Assembly (NCBI GenBank): GCA_951406725.2
Contig: OX597829.1
Coordinates: 36,084,001-36,148,000 of the forward strand
Source: Octopus vulgaris
Taxonomy: Eukaryota
Direction: 5' to 3'
DNA: 64,000 nucleotides
The notes beneath the pieces were generated by a model. It saw only the letters and a program-made list of their open reading frames with translations, was not told the DNA's origin and made no database searches. The first letter of the stretch is position 1; each line of letters begins with the position of its first letter. Positions 490 through 62,806 of the stretch are shown piece after piece. The position numbers and the translations under genes are program-made.

Positions 490-870
490 AGCGGTAACGT
501 TTAAATTTATTGAGTGCATGAACGGAAAATCTCGCTCCTGCAGTTTAGGTAGGGGTTTATTAAAAAGAGTCCTTTAACATAGTTCATTTGTCGTTTATAT
601 ATAGCCTGTCATTCCTCATACTACTGAAGTCAGGCTTGCATTTCTGTAGAATTTACTATTTGAAGTGATCCATGGTGCTTTCCTCCAACAACCATATATA
701 CCTAACCAGGGCTGTGATATTGAAGGCGGATTTATGGCTGTTAAATCTGGTTTGGAAGGATCTTCTGTGACACCTGCGTATTCCGGGGTTCTTTAATATC
801 AACCCTGTCACGTATACGAGGTCAATGTATTGCACTGGCTGATAAGGGGCATGTAGCTTTCCTTCTGCAT
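490..870 (-). pseudogene. Penelope-like element GIY-YIG endonuclease relic (frameshifted)
   Basis: Minus-strand fragments, joined across frameshifts, read roughly KATCPL...YAGVTE...FQTRFNSHKSAFNITALVRYIWLLEE...QKCKP...LNCRSEIF. This follows the CPL/YxG/R..H/YIW/LN.RSE pattern of PLE GIY-YIG domains. Confidence 0.7.
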
Positions 871-2023
871 GAGCAATATACTTATCAGCTTACCCGAGAC
901 AATTTTTTTGTATTTACTGTAAATAAGCTAAAAGATATTAATTTCTTCGAAAACTAAAGAAGGGCACATGTTCTCCCCTATATTACATACATTTACAAAT
1001 ATATTTACATACATACACACATACATAGATACATGCATGCCTGCATGCATACATATATGCACACACACGCACACACACACATATATATCTATATATATTA
1101 TATGTATTTGTGTACGTATTTGTGTATGTATTTGCGCGTGTTAAACGTATAATATACACACGCACTCTTGTATCTCTTGTGCGAGTTTCTGTTTTTAAAA
1201 TTACAAAATGCTCTAAATCCCGTGTATATGTTATTCATAGAAACTTAAAAAAGTATATGTAGATGTTTACCGGCACCGTATGTGCAGACATAGTTGACTA
1301 AAACCCTACATATATGCTCGTGCGCACACACATACACAAGATGACAAAATGAGTTCACACACACACACTGTCTCTTTCTCTCTCTCATAACTACACTGGA
1401 TTATTTGGTATTCATTTTAAGAAACAGAATTTTCACCTAAATATAAAAAAATAGAAATATACATATTACTATTTTTCTATCGCCGGACAATTTCGAATGC
1501 TCTAGCTAATATCTAGGCTTCTTAAACTTTCATTAAGGAACATGCACCCATATTTTGTCTCTGTATAGATTAGCATCTTGGTGCTTATTTACAGTAAATC
1601 GCACCCACCACACACAAAAAAAAAAGAAAGAAGACTCAGTATAATTTGATAATAGTGCATAGAATGATAACGTAGGCTAATTAATTCACGGCGCACTAGA
1701 CTGTAAACAAAGTATTTACACTAAAAGTTTTATGTCTCACTGTGTAGAAAAAGTAGGATCAATCTGGTTAATTTCTAATCAACTTAGACCTCAGTCATAT
1801 CAAAGCGAAGCTGAACTTATATTGATTTTTTAAAAAAAAACATGAGTAATTTACATAGCTGAGTTTCAAAGTATAAGCTATTAATCTCTCTTTGGTATAT
1901 ACTTTCTGAGACGAAAGACTAAGGAGACTAGAATGTTCCCAAATTGATCCCACAGTTTTTAACACTGAAACTGATTTATCTATTAAAACTCATATACCTT
2001 AACAGATGCATATATATATATAT

Positions 2024-2238
2024 ATCAAAATAAGTACAAGGATATCCAAGGTAGTGTAGTACAATCGTTTTTTTAATGAAGTAGCATAAAACGATTGTAC
2101 TATACTACCTTGGATATCCTTGTTGCTTATTTTGATTATAATCACCCCATTTGATTTATATGGATAATACAATACAAAAATTCTGGTGCCTTTAACTTAA
2201 GTACCATATTCATCCGAATCTAAATTTTGCTGAACCTA
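2024..2238. mobile_element. (TA)n-embedded hairpin cassette, probably PLE-derived
   Basis: About 48-bp inverted arms ATCAAAATAAG...CAATCGTTTT / AAAACGATTG...CTTATTTTGAT (2024-2136) plus a ~100-bp unique tail, with (TA)n on both sides. Confidence 0.6.
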
Positions 2239-2315
2239 TATATATATATATATATATATGCTATGTACCTTAATTAGGGTATAAAACTCATATACCTTAA
2301 TATATGCAATATGTA

Positions 2316-2346
<31 letters not shown>

Positions 2347-2399
2347 CTGTACGTATGCAGGTTTGTATAAGTTTAAGTGTTTGCATAATTACGAATGGA

Positions 2400-2745
2400 G
2401 GCAGAGGTATGAGTGGAGTGTTGGAGAGTGCCATTACTGTCAGTGTGTAAATATCTATTGATTAGATCGATTGACATATACAAAAGCAAGAACGGAGAGA
2501 TTTTGTAACTATAGTTGTGCAATGAGTGTCAGCATTAGTAGCAGCAAATTAAAGATTAAGGCTCATGAAATGTTGGAAATTCAATGGCGGAGCAGAATAT
2601 GTAATTTCAGGTACGTCTGGATTTCAACAGGCACTGGGAAATGAAGAATGACTTCCAGCTGAAACGTTAGACTTCCTACACTTCGCATCAATAAATTCAT
2701 CATTGTACAAATTTTCCTTATGCTGTCATCATTTCATATATTAAA
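2400..2745 (+). mobile_element. Possible decayed PLE 3' end with HHR remnant
   Basis: KLKIKAHEMLEIQW-like peptide, then gggaa-ATGAAGA...GAAACGTTA-gacttcc (~2636-2676) and AATAAA. Confidence 0.3.
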
Positions 2746-3189
2746 TTGTTTTCCGTATAATTGTAAATTACTTGTGAGGTTAAAGGAGAAAGAAGAAAAT
2801 TAGGAAAAATAAAATAAGAACAACTAAGGGATAACAAAAATACAGAAAGACATATAAACAGTAACAATTTCAAAACCTTAAACACATACATATACATACT
2901 GTACTATACGCAAACATACTATATAACAACGAAAAATAAATATTCACAAGTACAACAAAAGGTAAAGCTAAGATAAAAATGCATAACAGTTCGGGCAGAC
3001 AATATGAATATCTGTTTGACGAGATTAGTTTTGAAATGGTGGTAAGTCTGAGAAATTTTACGACCTTCATGAAAATGTAATAAAGTAGCGTAGACGAAGA
3101 TTAGCTGTGAGACATTTTTCAAATTCGGGCACTGACGTTTTCCCCCAAAGAAAAGACCATTACAATTGTGTAGTGGACAAAATGCACGA

Positions 3190-3315
<126 letters not shown>

Positions 3316-3467
3316 AATATATCTATCTATCTATCTAACTGTATGTCTGTCTGCTTGTCTAACACTCTCATTCTCTCCTCTATATATATACATATATACT
3401 TATACATACTTACATACATACACACACACATATATATATATATAGATAGATTGATAGATAGATAGAT

Positions 3468-3522
<55 letters not shown>

Positions 3523-3842
3523 TATTTATATTTATGCTTACAGGATACAAACACACAGACACACATGTATACACAAACACATGAAGTGGATTAAATTAAT
3601 CACGTATAATGTTATTGTACGGCTATTGGTATCAAAGTTGCTTTCATTCTCCCAGTGACAAACAGGATTGGGCTTTCCTCTGTTCAATGTTATCAGCCTC
3701 TTACTGTTATCGAATCAGTCGGCAGTTGATTAAAGTGAGCTGTTTCCATTGTATATGTATTTACACTTTTATAAATGTGTGTGTGTGTGCATATACATAC
3801 ATTGATACATATATACATATAAATATATATATATAAATAATA

Positions 3843-3893
<51 letters not shown>

Positions 3894-3982
3894 GTGTAAA
3901 TGTATATAGATATATGTATATAAATAAATATATATACACATAAACACGCGCACACACAAATATATATATAAATGCGTGTGTG

Positions 3983-4077
<95 letters not shown>

Positions 4078-4127
4078 ATATATATGTGTGTATATATGTA
4101 TATATCTACATCTATCTATCTATACAT

Positions 4128-4212
<85 letters not shown>

Positions 4213-4242
4213 TATATAGATATATATGAATATATATATATG

Positions 4243-4283
<41 letters not shown>

Positions 4284-4306
4284 CATATATATATTACATT
4301 AGTAAA

Positions 4307-4769
4307 TATATGTGACAACTCGGTAGCCGTGATAAAACTCCGAGTTCCGGATTTCGGGGTGGAAATCCACGCCGCCATATTTTCAGTTATCCGGCAATTC
4401 CGATGTTCGGATAACTGTAGAGAAGGCAGCGGAGATTTCCACCCCTATATTCGAACTCGGGGTTTTATCATGGCTACCGAATAATTGTCACATATTACAT
4501 TTACAGATAAATTCCTCTATTTACATAATATCGAGGTCTCTTTCATTCTTTTTTTGTCTTACCATTTCTATATACTGATCTATAATGAATTATGTTACTA
4601 CATTTTGACCCCAGCAAAATATATTTTCCAACTAGTTAACGATACACAACTTGTGTCCGGTATATTGTGAGTATACTCACAATATACCGAACACAGTTTG
4701 TATGTCATTAACCAACTAGAGAAGACCTCTTCTTCCGGTTAAAAACGTAATAACATAGTTCTTTATAGA
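4307..4769. repeat. Twin long imperfect palindromes (foldback/MITE-like)
   Basis: IR1 spans 4307-4496 (tgtgacaa..cggtagccgtgataaaactccgagttc / gaactcggggttttatcatggctaccg..ttgtcaca). IR2 spans 4579-4769, centred on gtgagta|tactcac. Confidence 0.85.
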
Positions 4770-4984
4770 ACAATCATGTTATAGTGGCAAAAGCAGTTAC
4801 CGTCTTGTATTGGTAAAACTTAAATCTTCTAGAACTAACTAGTTTACTGGGCAAGGGTCTCCTACTATAGCCTCGAGCCGACCAAAGTCTTGTGAGTGGA
4901 TTCAAAATGATGCGTGGCATTCTATTGAATGATAAATAGTAACTAATATATAGTATATATATGGTGATGTCCCGTACCCATATA

Positions 4985-5718
<734 letters not shown>

Positions 5719-5739
5719 ATATATTGTCTACTATATATG

Positions 5740-5945
5740 TCTATGTGTGTGTGCGTCTGTATCCATTCCCCCAAAAACCGGTGTTGGTGTGTTTACGCCC
5801 ACGAAGCGCAGCGGTTCGGCAACGAGTCGATAGAATAAGTACTAGGCTTACAAAGAATAAGTCCTGAGGTCGATTTCTACAACTAAAGCGGTGTCCAAGC
5901 ATGGCCGCAGTCAAGAGATTGAAAAATGTAAAGGAATAAAGAATA
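5740..5945 (+). mobile_element. SINE family A, 3' half
   Basis: gcggttcggcaa..gatagaataagtactaggcttacaaagaataagtcc..gcatggccgcagtca. Confidence 0.8.
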
Positions 5946-5963
5946 TATACATATATAAATTTA

Positions 5964-6022
<59 letters not shown>

Positions 6023-6470
6023 ATACATACATATATACATATATATACATATATACATGGATATATATATATATATACATATGTATATATATATATATAC
6101 ATATATATACATGATCATAAATACATATATCTATATACATATATATAGACACACTCACACACACATATATATATGTATACATATATATATAAATATACAC
6201 ATATATATTTATGTATCTAGGTATAATACAGATATACCTACATATATACAATGTATACATATATATGGATTTATATATATATTATTATATGTTTATATAT
6301 ATGTGTGTATATATAGTATATATATAATTATATATACATAAATATATATATAATTATATATATTACATATGTATGATATATATGTATATATATATATATA
6401 TATATGCATGTATATATATATGTATATACATATATATATATATATATTTGTGTGCGTGTATGTATATATG

Positions 6471-6510
<40 letters not shown>

Positions 6511-6568
6511 GATACATACATACATACATACATACATACATACATACATACATACATACATACATACA

Positions 6569-6600
<32 letters not shown>

Positions 6601-6856
6601 CGAAATGTCGGTGGACGGATTAACCTCGGAAATGTATGTTGGAATATATTTGCACAATCTAATTTATGTTTAATTAATTATAGACACCCTTAGTTAAAAG
6701 TATTTCGCTTAGAGGAATTAAGACGTTCCCTATGTAATACATTTGTATGCATATTGCAGACAAACATTTATGAACACACATTCACCTAAATATATGAAAC
6801 CAGATAGACAGTTACAAAGGTTGGGAGGCTGACAGACATTTAGACAGACAGACACA

Positions 6857-6879
6857 TAGATAGATAGATAAATAGATAA

Positions 6880-6966
<87 letters not shown>

Positions 6967-7022
6967 TAGATACATAGATAGGTAGATAGATAGATAGATA
7001 GAGATAGACAGATGGATGGATG

Positions 7023-7115
<93 letters not shown>
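6857..7115. repeat. (GATA)n microsatellite
   Basis: Directly visible. Confidence 0.95.
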
Positions 7116-7116
<1 letters not shown>

Positions 7117-7439
7117 GAGAGAGAGTGTGAGAGAAATTTATAGTTATGCTCAGACATAATTAGTCAAGTTCTCCCCGTTCACATAATTCTTACAAAGCTA
7201 TTTAGCATGAGTTATATACATAAATATGTGTGTGCCTCTGTCTGTTTGGGTGGGTGCGTGCGAGCGTGTGTATTCTTATGTGTATGTATGTATATATATA
7301 TATATTCATATCTGTATATCTAGCAATATGTCTATCTATCTAGCTATCAATCTATCTATCTCTATTTATCTATCTATATGCATATATATGTATACACACA
7401 CACACACACACACACTCACACACACTCACACACACACAC

Positions 7440-7505
<66 letters not shown>

Positions 7506-7714
7506 ATATATGTGTGTGTGTATGGAATGAGAGACAGTTATAGATGTATGTGCATGACTGTGCTTGCGTATGTCTATCTGTATGTGTGCGTGTCTAATTT
7601 TTGTGTATGATTCGTTTCTACATGTTTTGTGTGTATGTGCATGAAGACGGAGTAAATATAATTTCATATTTCCATATTTCCTATAAGTGTGTGGAGATAG
7701 AAACAGAATAATGT

Positions 7715-7755
7715 GACGCCGCGTTTCCATATATTATCCTATCATACATCTTCAG
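7715..7755 (-). ncRNA. Hammerhead core candidate lacking stem I
   Basis: Minus strand: CTGAAGA-tgtat..atatg-GAAA-CGCGGCG-TC. Stem III pairs but the flanks do not. Confidence 0.4.
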
Positions 7756-7903
7756 TCTAAATATTTTTTGTGTTATACGACGGGCTTGTACAAGCTCAGT
7801 AATTATCGAACTACTGAAATATCTATAGACGTAAATATAGCAGAAATGTCTTACGGAAATTATCATTCATTGACAGTTATCTATCTATGTCACACTCTGT
7901 GTG

Positions 7904-28921: not shown

Positions 28922-28959
<38 letters not shown>

Positions 28960-28960
<1 letters not shown>

Positions 28961-29368
28961 TCTTTACTCTTTTACTTGTTTCAGTCATTTGACTGGCCAT
29001 GATGGAGCACCGCCTGTAGTCGAGCAAATCGACCCGAAGATTTATACTTTGTAACCCTAGTACTTATTCTATTGGTCCCTTTTGTCGAACCGCTAAGTTA
29101 CGTGGACGTAAACAAACCTGCAACGGTTGTCAAGCGATGTTGATGGGACAAACACAGACACACAAACATATACACACATACACACATATATACATACATA
29201 TATATACATATATACGACAGGCTTCTTTCAGTTTCCGTCTACCAAATCCACTTACAAGGCTTTGGTCGTCCCGAGGGTATAGTAGAAGAAACTTGTCCAA
29301 GGTGCCACGCAGTGGGACTGAAGCCGGAACCATGTTGTTCGTAAGCAAGCTACTTACCACACAGCCAA
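28960..29368 (-). mobile_element. SINE family A, full length
   Basis: Reverse complement is colinear with 62399-62806. Confidence 0.9.
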
Positions 29369-31683: not shown

Positions 31684-32340
31684 GGTCGAATGCGTGACTC
31701 ATATTGTTAGTGCTTGTTAAAGTCTTGCGTAGAAAGAGTACAAGCGTAGATACGACAGGGTAATCTAAGGCCTCCTCTGGCTACTACGCCATAAGTATGG
31801 ATATGAGGTTACGGGTGCTTGGTACCAACATACACCGGAAAAGGTAATAGACGAAAAGGGGAAGCCAAAATCCTCTGAGGCTTTGACGTCCAGACAGACA
31901 AGGTATTAGAGCACCGAAGGCCGGATATAATAACCTTCAGGAGGGACCAACAAGAGTGCCTAATAATTGACGTAGCAGTGCCAGGAGGTCAATATATCAT
32001 AATGAAAGAAAGAGAAAAGTTTGATAAATATGGAGGCCTGAAAATTGAGATCGCTAAGAGGTGGCAACTACGAGAGTTGAACATAAAGTTAATCCCTATT
32101 GTAATCGGAGCATTGGGCTCAATGCGACCCAATCTGAAAAAAAAAACATCCGAAAACCTTAGAAATACCCTACAATCTAGGTATATTGCAAAAGTCGGCA
32201 TTACTTGGAACTGCGCGCATATTGCATTAAGTACTGTCTGTCTGAGGTCCTTGTTGTGACTTGACAAACAGTACAAACCCCCGGTAGACACAATATCTTC
32301 AATCAATAACCTCACGATATTGTATACTGTGCGACATCTA
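31684..32340 (+). mobile_element. Second R4/Dong-like RLE LINE 3' end (CCHC remnant plus endonuclease)
   Basis: ECVTHIVSAC..EYKRRYDRV..WYQHTPEKV..QTDKVLEHRRPDII..IIDVAVP..EKFDKY..IPIVIGALG..LQKSALLGTAHIL. Confidence 0.9.
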
Positions 32341-33609: not shown

Positions 33610-33974
33610 TTATATGTATATATGTATGTATGTATGTATGTATATGTATGTATGTATGTATATGTGTATGTATGTATGTATGTATGTATGTATGTATGTA
33701 TGTATGTATGTATGTATGTATGTATGTATGTATGTATGTATATATATATATGTGCGTGCGTGTGCGTGCGTCCTTCTGTTTATGTGTGTGTGTGTGTATC
33801 AAGGTTTGAACAGAAAGAACACAAAGAGAAACACTTTGACGAAAGTAGAGCAAACGGGAACCTCGACGAAAACTTAACGGACGGGAAATATAGACTGAGA
33901 TATAATACACGTAATATTTTACATATACACATATGTATATGTGTGTGTATGCATAATATATATATATATGTATG

Positions 33975-34054
<80 letters not shown>

Positions 34055-34182
34055 GGTATGTAGAAAAATACAACATGGACAAGAACGTATAACTCTTAGA
34101 AGACGATACAATAAACACAGACAGGACATTCGAAACCCTCAGTCTTCAGTCAAGAACCGGATCATCGTAGTAATTTCGGCTG

Positions 34183-35241: not shown

Positions 35242-36175
35242 CAGATGAAATTAACAAAAAAACAAGGAACAATGACAGGTGTATTAACAACAAGCAGCTG
35301 TATTATTTTGAAGCTCAGGAAGGTGAGAAAATCTTTTACGCTTCCTAGTGTTCCTTTCAACAAAAAGGAACACGAGGAAGTAAACAGATAGAGAGAAAAA
35401 TACTTGTGGATTTAGCGGTCAATCATAGCGACTGGCTGGAAGAAATTATTTGAATAGGAGAGCTAGAAAAAGAAGAGATAGTAAAGTACTGGTGATCCCA
35501 AAATGAAGATGTGCATGTGTGTAAGAGTGTATAAATGAGAGCATGTGGATAGCGGCTGGATAGGAGTGATAGCGGCTGATAGCATGTAGATACGAGTGAG
35601 AAGAGGAAGTAGGTGTCAGTGGAAGAGAGGAAAAGTTAGATGAAGAGGGGAGGGAAGTTGAGCCCAATGGCGCAAAGGAGCAAAGTGAGAAGATTAATTC
35701 TTGTTCATGGCGAAGGCGGGAGTCCGGATTGTCCCTGTGCCTAGACAATCCGAACACTGACAGGTGTTGTAATGAATGACCGGTACACCAAGATGTCATT
35801 GCTGGTCAGCCAAGTGGCGTCCCGTTTGACCAATGTACAGAGAAGGAAAGAAAGAGCAGGAGATGCAGTAAATTACGTTGCTAGAAATGCAGGTAAAAGA
35901 ATCAATGATATGATAGGGGCGATTATGGGTGCCTCTCAGGATGGTGATATTAGGGAGGTAGGGGAAAGTGATGCAGCATGGGCGGGAGCAGGGGAACTTG
36001 CCAGGTTGGGAGGTAGGGTTACGGAAGAAACTGTGGAGCAGGAGGTCACGCAGGTTGTGGGCTCGGTTGAAGGAACTAGTTTGGGGAAGATGTGCGAAGT
36101 GGAGGGTTCGGACTGGAATCGCCGGAAGGCTTGGAGAATGATTCGCTGGATGGTTGTAACAATGGTGGGGCACCC
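35242..36175 (-). mobile_element. Penelope-like element (Neptune-type) 3' part: GIY-YIG relic plus pLTR
   Basis: SFNRAHNLRDLLLHS..GKFPCSRPCCITFPY..SFTCISSNVIYCISCS..YIGQTGRHLAD..RLRHEQELIFSLCSFAPLG (ORFs 35796-36239 and 35446-35799). The Cys-rich linker before GIY-YIG is typical of the Neptune clade. Confidence 0.9.
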
Positions 36176-37040: not shown

Positions 37041-37620
37041 TCTCTACATTTAACAGTCCAATGGATTGATATCTGGGGAACTCGGAGGCCAAATATTGGC
37101 GGTTATGTGATGTTGAAAGTTTTCAGCCATCCATTCCTTTGTTACTAGTGTGATAGTGCAGAGTCTTACTGAAACACATATGAACTTCCATTGCATACAC
37201 TGTCTATCCAGGACCTCAATGTAGGCCTCAGAATTAACTCTAAGGTCTTGTGGAAAGAAATAAGGAGGCATCACATGTCCTTCATTGTTGACAATCCCTA
37301 AAACCATGACAGTTGCAGAAAATTTTGTTCGCATAACATTTGGAACTTCAGAAGGGTCTGCACATAGTGATCTGTCATTTCTTCTGTTAACTTTTGGAAC
37401 TTGATCGAAGTTTTTCTCGTTTGAAAAAAAAACAAATCAAATCTTCTGCTGGATTTTTCAGTGTGTTTAAGAGCTTTTAGATCTGATGTGGTGATTTTCT
37501 TTTGCTTTTGCTGACAAATTGACCATTCCTCATTATATAAGATTTATATCTGATGTCTCGTGGACAACATTTCTGACTATTCTTTCTGATACATGGAGAT
37601 CTTTTGCAATTGACCTCATG
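36830..37620 (-). pseudogene. Tc1/mariner (DDD-type, maT/DD37D-like) transposase relic
   Basis: FSNEKNFDQVPKVNRRNDR..VMVLGIVNNEG..WPPSSPDINPLD..ACRRFTSHIKAVVKAEGGFIE*. Confidence 0.85.
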
Positions 37621-40267: not shown

Positions 40268-40911
40268 TTAGAGATAGGATTGTACTGAATATAGATTATG
40301 CCCACAGTTTCTGCTATACTCACTTTTCAGCAATTCGATGCGATTTGTCCAAGTCCACATTGGCACATTCGGATTACCTAGTCCGTACCTGTCAGACAAC
40401 TGAAAACGTCTGAGCAGGTTTTTGAGGGTTTTGCAACCCACTCTTCTATCAGATAGTACCACGCAATCAAAACGTCCACCTAAGACAGCGTTCCAATCCC
40501 CTACAAACACTAAAGTCCGAGACGTTCCCAGAAAAACCTCGAGACATTTGAAGTAATCAGACCATCCTGCCTCTGTTGAAGCCATCAGTCTTAAGGCCCT
40601 GCCGTCACTGCTTATAACATCTAGGACCACGAACTTACCTTCAGGATCCAGGAAGATTGCCTTTATTTTCAAATCCAAACCTTTTCGGAAAAGTACCGTA
40701 GAACCACCACAGCCTCCGACGGACAGACACGGAGAAAGAAAAATCTTGTATCCACCGAAAAGGCCTGTGGGGTCCCGCGAGTCGGGAAGTTTGGTTCACT
40801 AATGACTGCTACGTCTACACTAAGGGACTTTAGGTCATTTAAAAGATGACTTTTTTTCCAAGGCGACCCGAGTCCCCTGACATTTATGCAACCTACTCTC
40901 AGCATCACCAT
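40268..40911 (-). pseudogene. Tx1/L1-like LINE ORF2 apurinic endonuclease domain (frameshifted, RT missing)
   Basis: LRVGCINVRGL..DVAVISE..DPEGKFVVLD..LVFVGDWNAVL..WTWTN. Confidence 0.85.
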
Positions 40912-40927
40912 GCTAAAAACAAATAAT

Positions 40928-42483
40928 TAGGATGGAGAAGAAACTCTACTTACTCTTGTTGTCTGGTAGGGTGGCTCCCTTGTACTTTGGTGTGGGTGTG
41001 TATGCGAGGTTTTTGAATAATTTTTTGCGAATGTTTTTTTGAGCGACCCAACAGCTGGGAATTTTTGTTTTTATAGTGTTGTAATTGTATTATGTGATTT
41101 TAAAATTTTGTATATGTGTTGGGAAGACAAAGTCTGTCATTGTGGTGTTTGTATTGTCTCTTAAGTATGTAATTACGTGTATGTTGTTTGTATTTATGGC
41201 TGTGAGGTATGTAGTGCTTGTGGGGTCTGTTTGAGTTGATGTTGGTGTATCAGGTGGTAGTGCTGGTGAAGGTGTTGTTGTTGTTAACTGTTACGTGTGT
41301 GTGTGTTGCAACTATTGGGAAGTTCCGCTTCTTTGCGTTTCCCCTTTTTTCCAATGTCTCTGTAGTCTTTTTCTTTGGGTGAAGGGGGTACTGAGCAACA
41401 TTCTCCCCTCTCAACCTCAGTACTCGAGCAGTCCGAGTTATTTGGGTCGGGAAGGGAGATTTTCTCTGGGTTTTGGTCTTGTTAGAGTTCATTTGTTGTT
41501 GCTGCTGCTGCTGGTGTTACTGGTGGTAGTGGTGGTGGTGGTGGTGGTGGTGGTGGTGGTGGCGAAGTTACTGCCGCTGCTGCTGTTGTTATTGTTGCTG
41601 TTGTTAAGCAACAAGACGAGTAAGGGTGATTAGGTGGTGGTCTAGGGCTTAGGGGCGGGAGACCCCAGACCTTGGAAAAAAAAACTTTGGTCCACTTGTA
41701 GTCGAGAGCTCTTCGTTGATACCCGACACCACTGGGAGGTGGCCCTCGACGTCGCTGGAAATGAAGATCTCCAGGTCCAAATTCTTGAACGGCTGCTGCT
41801 GCTGGTACTCCAGTTGGTGTTGGTGGTGCCTTAATGACGGCTGGAGGTAGCGTCGCTGTTGCTGGTGGAAATGATGATGGCGTTGGTCATGCGGCAATCA
41901 CTAGTTCCTGCTGCTGCTGTACTAGAAGTGCCTTCAGTGCGGGTGTCGGCAGAAGGGACTGGTTGCCTCTTCTTTTCTTTAGGCCAGGAGACCCTGAGGT
42001 GGCCTTGGTCACCACAAAAGTAACATCTAGGCCTCCTTCTCTCCCCACTGACGTGTAGCTTGCTGCAATCAGGTAGATTTATCGAGTCGGGGTTGGAAGT
42101 TATGCTCTGTTCAATTCGAACAAGGAGCTCTATCTCTTGACCCGACCAATTTTGTTGGCGCAATTTGTGCATCACCTGTATTGTGGCGGTGTCCTCTATG
42201 TCTAAGAGGGCAGCCTCTACCAGCCAGCATATATTTATTTCAGGGAGCACCTTCCCAATTTCAATATTCGTAACGCGTTGGTGTTCATGGCGTTGGTGTC
42301 CATGGCGGTGGTGGCGTTCGAGGCGTTTTCTTGATTTTTTTCATTTCCATTTTCTGTGTTGATGGTGGTGCTGGTGCTGTTACTGATGCTGCTAGTGGTG
42401 TTGGTACTGCTGCCTGTACTGATGCTGTTCAGAAGGAGGGGAAAAAACTCGCTGTATTGGCTACTGGTAACAACCACTGCCAT
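40928..42483 (-). pseudogene. Tx1/L1-like LINE ORF1 relic with zinc knuckle
   Basis: RRPRCYFCGDQGHLRVSW (degenerate CCHC) in ORF 41831-42250, with low-complexity flanks, directly upstream of the APE. Confidence 0.7.
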
Positions 42484-45053: not shown

Positions 45054-45111
<58 letters not shown>

Positions 45112-45335
45112 TTTTGTATATGTCTGTATGTTCTTTTCCCCACTGCCAGCTGACAACCCGTAACGGTTTGTTTACGCCGTCATAATTTTGTGGTTCGGTA
45201 AAAGAGACTGATAGAATAAGTACTAGGCTTACAAGGATAATTTCTGAGGTTGATTTCTTTGAATAAATGACCTTTTAAGGCGGTGCTCGAGCATGGCCAC
45301 TGTGAAATGATTGAAACAAATAAAAGATTAAGAAA
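44950..45335 (+). mobile_element. SINE family A
   Basis: gtagacggaaactgaaagaagcc-(TA)n-..gatagaataagtactaggcttacaa..gcatggcc. Confidence 0.8.
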
Positions 45336-45618
45336 ATATATATATTTATATATTTAATGAAAATAATAATGCAATACGAAAGTATTGCTTTCCAGTAAAA
45401 GATAACCCGTAAGGGTAAAATTATACATATAAAAGTAAATAAATGGTACAACGAGGCACCGATATTTACTGGAAAATAGCAATCGTAATAAATACGACGC
45501 TATTGTATAGCTTCACTGCGTATATACTAGCAAAGACGCGTGTGTGCAACAAACATGAAAAATATTTGTCTTACCTCTAGGAAGAACATCTGAAAAATGA
45601 AAAACCTAGAATCGGATA

Positions 45619-45689
45619 ATGCAGGACCGGTTTCAGTCTCTTCAAATACGTTTGACAAAGTAGATTTGATTTGTCTTTATCAGCTGCAT
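45619..45689 (-). ncRNA. Antisense twin hammerhead with G8A core change
   Basis: Same fold on the minus strand, but the core reads CTGATAA and stem II has one mismatch. Confidence 0.65.
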
Positions 45690-45926
45690 ATACCTAAGCA
45701 AAATTTCAAATGTTGCCACATCTATGCCAGTATACTCGTCTGAACGCCAAAACGTTAACAGAACGATAATGTTACCCTTACGGGCTATCTTTTACTGGAA
45801 AGCAATACTTTCGTATTGCATTATTTTCATTGAAACTTCTTTACTGTTATCGTTCTGTTAACGTTTTGGCGTTCAGACGAGTGTACTGGCATAGATGTGG
45901 CAACATTTGAAATTTTGTCTAGGTAT

Positions 45927-45997
45927 ATGCAGCTGATGAAGACAAATCAAATCTACTTTGTCAAACGTATTTGAAGAGTCTGAAACCGGTCCTGCAT
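45927..45997 (+). ncRNA. Type I hammerhead ribozyme, canonical core
   Basis: atgcag-CTGATGA-agac..(tcaaat/atttga)..gtct-GAA-ACCGGT-C-ctgcat. Predicted cleavage after C45991. Confidence 0.85.
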
Positions 45998-47404
45998 TAT
46001 CCGATTCTAGGTTTTCCATTTTTCAGATGTTCTTCCTAGAGGTAAGACAAATATTTTTCATGTTTGTTGCACACACGCGTCTTTGCTAGTATATACGCAG
46101 TGAAGCTCTACAATAGCGTCGTATTTATTACGATTGCTATTTTCCAGTACATATCGGTGCCTCGTTGTACCATTTATTTACATTTATATTTATATATTTA
46201 TTTATATATACATGTATGCATCTATGTATGTGTCTGTGTGTATGTACGTATGTATAGCGTTGAATAATCTAAATATGGGGAAGAAATTCAAGACAAAAAA
46301 TAACACTGAGATTTTCGAAATCTGTCCCTGGCTATAATTGTTTTGCCACTCTCACCAGCAGAAATATAACGAATTGGTCAGTGATTGGACTGTTTTAAAC
46401 CTCTGACCAACAATTCTATTATTTCACGAATGCAATAAATATGTGTACCTATGAGAGCATCTGTGTGTGCTTATTTGAAACTATTATTAATGCACCAGTA
46501 TGCTACTAAACAAACAAAGTTCTATAGAGTAATTGTAATAGAAGCTTGCCAGCTGAAATGTATTGTGACATTTAATTACCTTTGTGCTCTAAGTTCAAAT
46601 GCCACTACAGTTGAATTTTGCCATGGGCTGATAATTATCAGTACAACTTAGTATGATTGTTTCCATTGAGAATATTATTATATATTGCAAATAACAAACA
46701 TACGCATATACACAGATCCATTCTATTAAATTCTTTATTAAATCTCTCTCTCTCTTTGTATACATATATGTGTGTGTATGTATATATACATAAGTGTGCG
46801 TGTGTGTGTATATATATATATATATGTGTGTGTGTGTGGAGGGAAATATGTGTGTGAGTGTGTATGTATGTACCTATGTATGTATAATTATATAATCTCT
46901 AGATATTCAGTTTCTCCTTACATCAGTCTGTCACATGTTCGCTGGTTTTACATTAGAAAACTGGATTCAATTCTCATTCGAAATGTCTGCCTAAGAAATT
47001 CCAGGTTTGTAGAATGGGAGAGGAGAGATGTAGTAGCGTTCCTACTCATTTCTAGTTATGTTATGCAGTCGAAGATGTCCTTATCAAGACAGCATTCAAA
47101 TATAGATGTGTTTGTAGATAAATCTTAACAGAAACAGCCCTAGAGAAAGAAATAAAAACGAAAGGAAAAAGAGAGTGGGAAAATCAGTTGAAATGTTGTG
47201 TGTATGTGTGTATGTCTGTGTATGTACGTGTTTTTAGGTGAATGAGTTTGATGCGGTATAGATGTATAAATATACATTCATACACACACACATATGCATA
47301 TACATATCCTACACACGTGTGTATGTGCGCGCGCGTATGCGTATATATGTGCGTGTGTGTGTCTGTGTGTGTGTGTGTATACATAAACACGCACACACTA
47401 CCAC

Positions 47405-62398: not shown

Positions 62399-62806
62399 AG
62401 GCGCAGGAGTGGCCGTTTGGTAAGTAGCTTGCTAACCAACCACATGGTTCCGGGTTCAGTCCCACTGCGTGGCATCTTGGGCACGTGTCTTCTGCTATAG
62501 CCCCGGGCCGACCAATGCCTTGTGAGTGGATTTGGTAGACGGAAACTGAAAGAAGCCTGTCGTATATATGTATATATATGTATCTGTGTGTGCGTGTGTG
62601 TTTGTCTCCCTAGCATTGCTTGACAACCGATGCTGGTGTGTTTACGTCCCCGTCACTTAGCGGTTCGGCAAAAGAGATCGATAGAATAAGTACTGGGCTT
62701 ACAAACAATAAGTCCCGGGGTCGATTTGCTCGACTAAAGGCGGTCCTCCAGCATGGCCGCAGTCAAATGACTGAAACAATTAAAAGAGTAAAAGAGTAAA
62801 GAGTAT
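62399..62806 (+). mobile_element. SINE family A, full-length reference copy (tRNA head, internal microsatellite, tail (aaagagta)n)
   Basis: A box gtggccgtttgg, B box ggttcagtccc. More than ten related copies or fragments occur in the window. Confidence 0.9.

Follow-up and report, generated by a model that had tools for sequence, protein, structure and literature searches.

How could two nearly identical copies of a small non-coding unit come to lie head to head at a single locus, each copy opening the unit at a different point? The question arose from a 64-kb stretch of AT-rich, microsatellite-rich DNA of animal type (the window), in which a first-pass annotation had described two interleaved, nearly identical inverted repeats in the order A-B-A'-B'. 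Re-mapping reproduced this arrangement at the same place. On the minus strand, the inverted arm reads from B, its 335-nt body (45435-45769, read from 45769 to 45435), through a 10-nt linker (45425-45434) into A, its 3' end or 'tail' (45357-45424, read from 45424 to 45357). On the plus strand, the direct arm starts with A' (45766-45831), continues through a 15-nt spacer that is missing from the inverted arm (45832-45846), and ends with B' (45847-46181) and three linker bases, its body and 3' end extending from 45847 to 46184. The arm ends overlap at the head-to-head junction in a 4-nt microhomology common to both (45766-45769). B and B' were found to differ at 8 of 335 nt (97.6% identity), and A and A' by two substitutions and one 3-nt indel, an insertion in A; the rate of divergence was higher for A than for B, with no significance (p 0.16). 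No other copy of the element was found elsewhere in the 64-kb window.

With the spacer joining A to B and the linker joining B to A, the closed unit amounts to 66 + 15 + 335 + 10 = 426 nt, within the 410-430 nt estimated earlier, and its GC content was 0.368 (36.8%). No stop-to-stop frame of at least 90 aa overlapped the element, as the earlier report of no ORF had indicated, and the proposal of a non-autonomous unit of retrozyme or Penelope-like element (PLE) type was supported. The description of the element as young stood in relative terms only, namely about 1.2% divergence per arm on the assumption that the arms were identical at the start.

Relatives of the unit were abundant in public data, which here comprised assembled contigs only, from 4 of the 24 listed sequencing runs at a threshold of 88%: three runs labelled 'DNA?' and one, X15, guessed to be RNA. 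In the three 'DNA?' runs, the summed contig depth over the unit exceeded the depth over the unique right flank by a factor of 646-7,764, a ratio that is not a copy number; these values indicated a multi-copy family, and a single-copy locus is therefore excluded. X15 also contained family pieces, as contigs that cannot show expression, strand, ends or circles. The A-spacer-B order recurred in a contig spanning 45772-45900 (X4 record 30) with 7 differences and 3 gaps, and the B-linker-A order in another at 45363-45456 (X15 record 9), the depth at 45427 in the linker being 58,502-68,295 in the three 'DNA?' runs. Because both adjacencies recur in other copies, the permutation is a property of the family and leaves no room for an ORF. 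The 3-nt insertion of A also occurs among the contigs of the family, where it makes up 3,323 of a depth of 37,557 in X1, and a variant at 45405 lay 38-43 letters from contig ends in four of four runs. The longest element-matching contig piece among those listed was 179 nt. Patterns of the family hammerhead gave no match in metagenome, viral and prokaryote contigs, collections that are not expected to contain the host.

The alleles at 46053 and 45957 are common to both arms of this locus and made up less than 5% of the contig depth, which suggests one source for the two arms. Furthermore, at least four head-to-head joints inside the element, antisense and then sense, were present among the joints listed (15 of 43; 12 of 30 rows with letters between). 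One of these, 45536-46015, had 49 letters on its short side, another was 45562-45822, and the remaining two, 45434-45878 and 45738-45894, had 25 letters each, under the caution line. Judging from these joints, head-to-head insertion seems recurrent in the family, at other positions of the unit. In three of three 'DNA?' runs the contig depth peaked at the 3' end of B and fell roughly fivefold to its minimum at the spacer, a gradient that is weakly consistent with priming near the sites described below and 5' truncation.

The canonical hammerhead ribozyme earlier noted in B' proved to contain all type I core bases, at 45927-45997 on the plus strand, with its core starting at 45933 and its triplet ending at C45991, after which the cut is predicted. 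Stem I forms six of six pairs (45927-45932 with 45992-45997), stem II forms four of four and carries a long extension, and helix III, correcting the first-pass annotation, consists of 1 bp with a palindromic tetraloop. It was the sole match of a type I motif scan on both strands of the 64 kb. Searched over 1.2 kb, the Rfam HH9 model gave 28.4 bits for this hammerhead (E 1.1e-4), short of the gathering score of 52, and 22.8 bits for its twin on the minus strand; nothing within the window matched Rfam at gathering level, and at E 10 microsatellite matches predominated among 150 of the 660 whole-window matches listed. The local hammerhead folds of three plus-arm stretches were by themselves not significant (z -0.9 to +0.2). 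According to sections of PMC4209133, a 1-bp helix III with a palindromic tetraloop is canonical for animals and cuts mainly as dimers, and the same form is given for the axolotl hammerhead HHR_Amex1 in part of PMC7229834. From this helix the intact hammerhead is predicted to be dimer-dependent.

The antisense twin (45619-45689, minus strand) carries the G8A change already noted, at 45678, together with a second lesion, a stem II change at 45637. Family contigs there fell almost wholly on the plus arm (0 to 2,498 in the bin 45643-45686 versus 301 to 81,198 in the mirrored bins), and both changes are thus derived losses, which look like ordinary decay. The pairing of one intact with one mutated hammerhead, earlier presented as meaningful, lost that status: random decay suffices, the chance that one of the 8 substitutions falls on an invariant core base being 0.23, and a functional meaning of G8A was rejected. 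Among the family contigs, the basal pair of stem II is replaced by A-A at 45981 in 37-53% of the depth, and C17 (45991) is replaced by A in 7-13% of the 'DNA?' depth, variants that possibly represent two ribozyme subfamilies. Just 3' of the hammerhead, at 46013-46148 on the plus strand, a splice-like acceptor is followed by a 15-nt ATG-initiated stretch, a donor and a second acceptor. These signals might be the relic of a pLTR intron; as such a candidate they were dismissed as weak, the G of the first acceptor (46026) varying in 9-30% of the 'DNA?' depth.

The direct arm was then considered as an RNA. Folded as a circle, it gave a z of -6.6, with none of 60 shuffles as low, and its antisense gave -3.8; measured against control stretches (22 of 58 eligible) its z was -7.4, the lowest control being -4.98. 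Stems I and II of the hammerhead were present in the minimum-energy fold, and the spacer and A both paired with B. The domain composed of the end of B, the linker and A reached a z of -5.6 (0 of 200), with a helix that crosses the B-to-A joint. When 35 family variants were set against the fold, 16 were unpaired, 11 kept their pair, 2 may, depending on phase, form one compensatory pair and 6 disrupt pairing, the last compared with 15.7 +/- 2.5 expected when substitutions of the same types were placed randomly. These 35 positions came from 40 listed variant rows (13 more being unlisted) after 45149, which lies outside the element, and 45405, which is confined to the left arm, were left out and three mirrored duplicates were merged. 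The 29-nt region of stem I, core and helix III held one variant, C17 to A, for 2.4 expected, a weak deficit. As far as these models go, the 426-nt unit looks selected as RNA; the fold is without power to tell a circular from a tandem template.

A further feature, missing from the earlier description, was a 16-bp direct repeat composed entirely of A and T that adjoins both outer ends of the insert. Its left copy (45341-45356, plus strand) lies in an AT microsatellite-like tract and its right copy lies at 46185-46200 (plus strand); the 16-mer occurs at 45341 and 46185 only in the 64 kb. In chance controls, 38 of 2048 AT-rich 30-mers for the left flank and 5 of 2048 for the right flank reached 16. 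From the sequence we infer that the repeat is a target-site duplication. Contigs of the unique right flank ended close to the duplicated site, 71-75 letters short of 46258, in three of three 'DNA?' runs, for which allele branching or low complexity is a possible cause. Directly to the left lies a separate SINE-like repeat (45110-45335) of extremely high copy, with a summed contig depth of up to 1.8e7 and at least six relatives within the window (e.g. 28938-29083, 5829-5963 and 62670-62791); no tRNA was called in it. The insertion landed in the AT tract at the end of this repeat.

At both outer 3' ends of the insert, a stem-loop preceded the end by 11-14 nt, and the end itself lay in a U-rich tract predicted to be single-stranded. 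The hairpin at 46156-46171 and its U-rich tail mark the end of the direct arm (site 1), the hairpin at 45371-45388 lies in A, and its counterpart in A', at 45802-45819 and also followed by a U-rich tail, is the equivalent of site 2. The combination of hairpin and U-rich tract occurred at four sites, two motifs in each of two arms, compared with 0.4 +/- 0.6 in shuffles; the hairpins were drawn from the list of a sigma-70 promoter scan, whose promoter matches are irrelevant in an animal. The target matched the continuation of the template at 9 of 10 nt on the right, over the first 10 nt of the right repeat copy; on the left, 3 of 4 nt matched and a wobble was added to these. Such matches at both outer ends would correspond to two priming sites about 75 nt apart. 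The linker and A, about 75 nt together, form a one-sided tail that ends the inverted arm only.

The 5' ends of the arms were also close to these sites. The distance between an arm's 5' end and the end of that arm's primer-matching tract was -3 to +1 nt for the direct arm and 12 to 16 nt for the inverted arm, and each arm had passed the priming site of the other and the predicted cleavage site. Under uniform truncation, the chance of both arms falling within 17 nt was 0.0002-0.002 (0.0005-0.003 with a wider window), a post hoc value from one locus. Both arms run about 190 nt 3' past the predicted cleavage site, and because they span it, cut linear monomers were not the template.

Considering this architecture, the locus is very probably a PLE-mobilised insertion of retrozyme type. 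The tandem or circular template with inversion at insertion that had been proposed was supported, and we lean towards a circular monomer RNA primed at both ends by a PLE enzyme in trans. In the proposed course, tandem source copies would be transcribed, their dimer-dependent hammerheads would cut the multimer, and the monomers would be ligated into circles, on which a lone hammerhead is predicted to be nearly inactive. A GIY-YIG nuclease would nick the AT-rich target at points 16 nt apart, and both nicked target strands would prime at the two hairpin-marked U-rich sites. Each cDNA would run one lap, pass the other site and halt at its own primer, a step of which the geometry is observed and the mechanism conjectured, and the two cDNA ends would be joined via the 4-nt microhomology. 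The circle is favoured because one assumption accounts for both arm stops, and on the model it suits a hammerhead predicted to cut in multimers and not in monomers. The fullest statement, that the locus is the genomic footprint of PLE-primed reverse transcription on circular retrozyme RNA, with cDNAs stopped at one lap by their own primer, is offered tentatively.

The same element could have been produced by two-ended PLE priming on an uncleaved linear RNA, either a tandem or a molecule of 1.2 units, with one arm running to the RNA 5' end and the other truncated or blocked. Such linear RNA, unprocessed, is taken in vitro by a PLE protein with two internal priming sites (PMC11167929, in part), in a rotifer PLE the inverted pLTR falls 37 bp short of its direct counterpart (sections of PMC3846280), the A/A' indel matches a family variant, and the other head-to-head joints begin at scattered positions, as from truncation. 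We nevertheless regard this route as unlikely: two separate coincidences are needed for each arm to halt at the counterpart of its own priming site after passing the other, the ten arm 5' ends of this locus and the four joints show no pile-up at one start, and it is the two-hammerhead template for which cutting is predicted (PMC4209133, in the text available). Both arms could also stem from one cDNA of about 1.2 units that folded at the 4-nt microhomology and copied itself, its tail being kept on one side at integration. This would account for the rare alleles common to both B arms, and self-priming has been proposed for PLE inverted junctions (in PMC3846280) and nuclease resolution for one-sided tails (in PMC8557442, as far as the text available extends). 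The junction is not palindromic, however, its mirrored arms lying 81 nt apart (A' and the spacer); target-matching bases follow the hairpin at both outer ends, as two primings predict; and the cDNA would still have to terminate at the very point of the unit from which the direct arm starts, which together render this folding improbable.

That A both precedes and follows B, with 15 and 10 nt between, here and in other copies, with no room for an ORF and no frame of 90 aa, and that the spacer and A pair with B in a family-conserved fold, makes it very improbable that the arms are truncated pseudo-LTR ends of an autonomous PLE with no independent small unit, even though most dispersed PLE-type hammerheads have been ascribed to truncated PLEs (per sections of PMC4209133). 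The depth drop at the spacer would on that view mean that many copies end or diverge there, and no loose ends inside the element appeared among the 24 of 690 listed. An autonomous partner may have part of the sequence in common. An assembly foldback or a DNA-level inverted duplication is scarcely credible, given that a foldback yields a perfect mirror whereas the arms differ by 10 substitutions and an indel, that each arm has a family-authentic segment missing from the other, and that the 16-bp repeat frames the block; the simple foldback against which the first-pass annotation had warned is set aside on these grounds. In its favour, no contig piece bridging 45766-45769 was among the 32 of 78,204 listed, where a bridging piece would be short and unlisted.

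The circular template, the preferred reading, faces difficulties of its own. It rests on one locus, and the lap test was devised after the locus had been seen; two circles, or mutual displacement, are required. Published models mostly foresee multimeric cDNA from circles (PMC7229834, PMC7761336), monomeric products being allowed (PMC4918200), as far as the accessible sections of these sources go. According to part of PMC11167929, linear RNA that has not been cleaved serves the anole PLE in vitro, and according to part of 10.64898/2026.07.22.740005, 8 of 9 Xenopus dimers were uncut in vitro, so that linear tandems can survive. The 3-nt insertion of A is a family variant, by which A and A' could come from different tandem units. 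In addition, the stem II base 45981 is changed in 37-53% of the contig depth, the hammerhead scores below the Rfam gathering threshold, no helper PLE was found within the window, and no tandem array was seen among the contig pieces listed (up to 179 nt). Nor did the listed joints include one from an allele lacking the insert, in a listing that skipped the repeats at both outer ends and so says little on this point.

This copy itself is probably a dead end that is predicted to make no circles, because it is without a second same-strand hammerhead and its read-through RNA buries the intact one. The read-through dsRNA foreseen in the first-pass annotation was predicted here as a long hairpin of about -620 kcal/mol in which the intact hammerhead is paired to its twin, and on this model the copy would be at most a source of dsRNA.

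As for a helper PLE, none was found in the frames of the window (no Pfam match; 0 of 24 candidates in a homologue search). A decayed frame at 35796-36113 (minus strand), with a cysteine linker and a YIG-like motif, presumably resembles a PLE endonuclease; its Atlas neighbours carry GIY-YIG in 10-27% of members, and neither Pfam nor the homologue search gave a match. We take a short frame at 33957-34151 (plus strand) to be like the helix after the GIY-YIG motif, two broken frames at 40268-42340 (minus strand) to be like a LINE zinc-knuckle ORF1 and AP endonuclease, and a frame at 31879-32259 (plus strand) to be like the restriction-like endonuclease of non-LTR elements, Pfam giving no match for any of them. 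A DDE_3 transposase relic at 37050-37436 (minus strand) was seen with E 0.0025, under the Pfam cut-off.

In the standing model, animal retrozymes move via circular RNA with the help of PLEs, on the basis of co-occurrence, sequence kinship and abundant circles (PMC4209133, PMC7229834, 10.64898/2026.07.22.740005); the accessible sections of these three sources contain no junction-level evidence for it. Passages of PMC3846280 and PMC8557442 treat it as an unsolved question how the inverted ends of PLEs originate. The retrozyme/PLE class is already known, and the notable part of this locus is the geometry of its unit-length, permuted arms. In the open-licence literature, we found no report of such arms as evidence for a circular template, or of this family, either of which subscription papers, supplements or repeat databases may contain. 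If the one-lap cap holds family-wide, circles would be the transposition template of animal retrozymes, moved by PLE machinery, and the formation of the inverted ends and tails of PLEs would be explained; should the cap fail, this would be no more than a common PLE-type insertion, belonging to a new retrozyme-like family. Since the family has many copies and recurrent head-to-head joints, the one-lap rule is testable from an assembly.

Compared with known systems, the unit agrees well with animal non-LTR retrozymes as described in sections of PMC7229834 and 10.64898/2026.07.22.740005, which are 150-450 bp long, non-coding and under 45% in GC, carry a canonical type I hammerhead, are strongly self-paired and of high copy, and include monomer derivatives. 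The locus likewise presents a type I hammerhead in a short, low-GC, non-coding unit, whose predicted self-paired RNA leaves the hammerhead helices free; animal retrozymes accumulate as self-paired circles (PMC7229834, in part). In contrast to those retrozymes, two permuted monomers lie here head to head inside one direct repeat rather than head to tail. 'Active' retrozymes in the definition of Li et al. have at least two consecutive same-strand hammerhead units, whereas the arms here are on opposite strands; without same-strand tandem hammerheads, the locus is thus a derived insertion and not an active retrozyme. As early as 2014, attention was drawn to pairs of hammerheads that lie 100-700 bp from each other on opposite strands (PMC4209133, in part), and 235 hammerhead loci are given for a squid genome in PMC6962438, whose available text carries no detail.

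The insertion itself resembles those of endonuclease-bearing PLEs, which typically show an inverted copy placed head to head, a tail on one side and a duplicated target (sections of PMC3846280 and PMC8557442). Alike are the inverted 5' copy placed head to head, the one-sided tail between two RT start sites, the target duplication, the AT-rich or (TA)n target and the hammerhead in the repeat (PMC3846280, PMC8557442, PMC11167929, as far as their text is available). The protein of the anole PLE was found to nick AT-rich DNA and to extend its two strands; it starts at a pair of adjacent internal sites, which set the limits of the genomic tail (PMC11167929, in part). At this locus, a head-to-head inverted 5' copy, a tail at one end only and a 16-bp target duplication in AT-rich, microsatellite DNA were all found. 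Unlike an autonomous PLE, it has no RT/GIY-YIG ORF between the pLTRs; its tail is about 75 nt compared with 30-40 in the PLEs so far described in those sources, its duplication 16 bp compared with 8-10 in the rotifer cases, and its tail sequence also precedes the body, which closes the unit, both arms being one unit long. Two target primings, a microhomology joint and a head-to-head junction are likewise shared with the 5' inversions of LINE-1 by twin priming (Ostertag and Kazazian 2001, as related in part of PMC10760644), from which the present locus differs in having nearly the whole unit in both arms, no poly(A) end, and arms that are circularly permuted.
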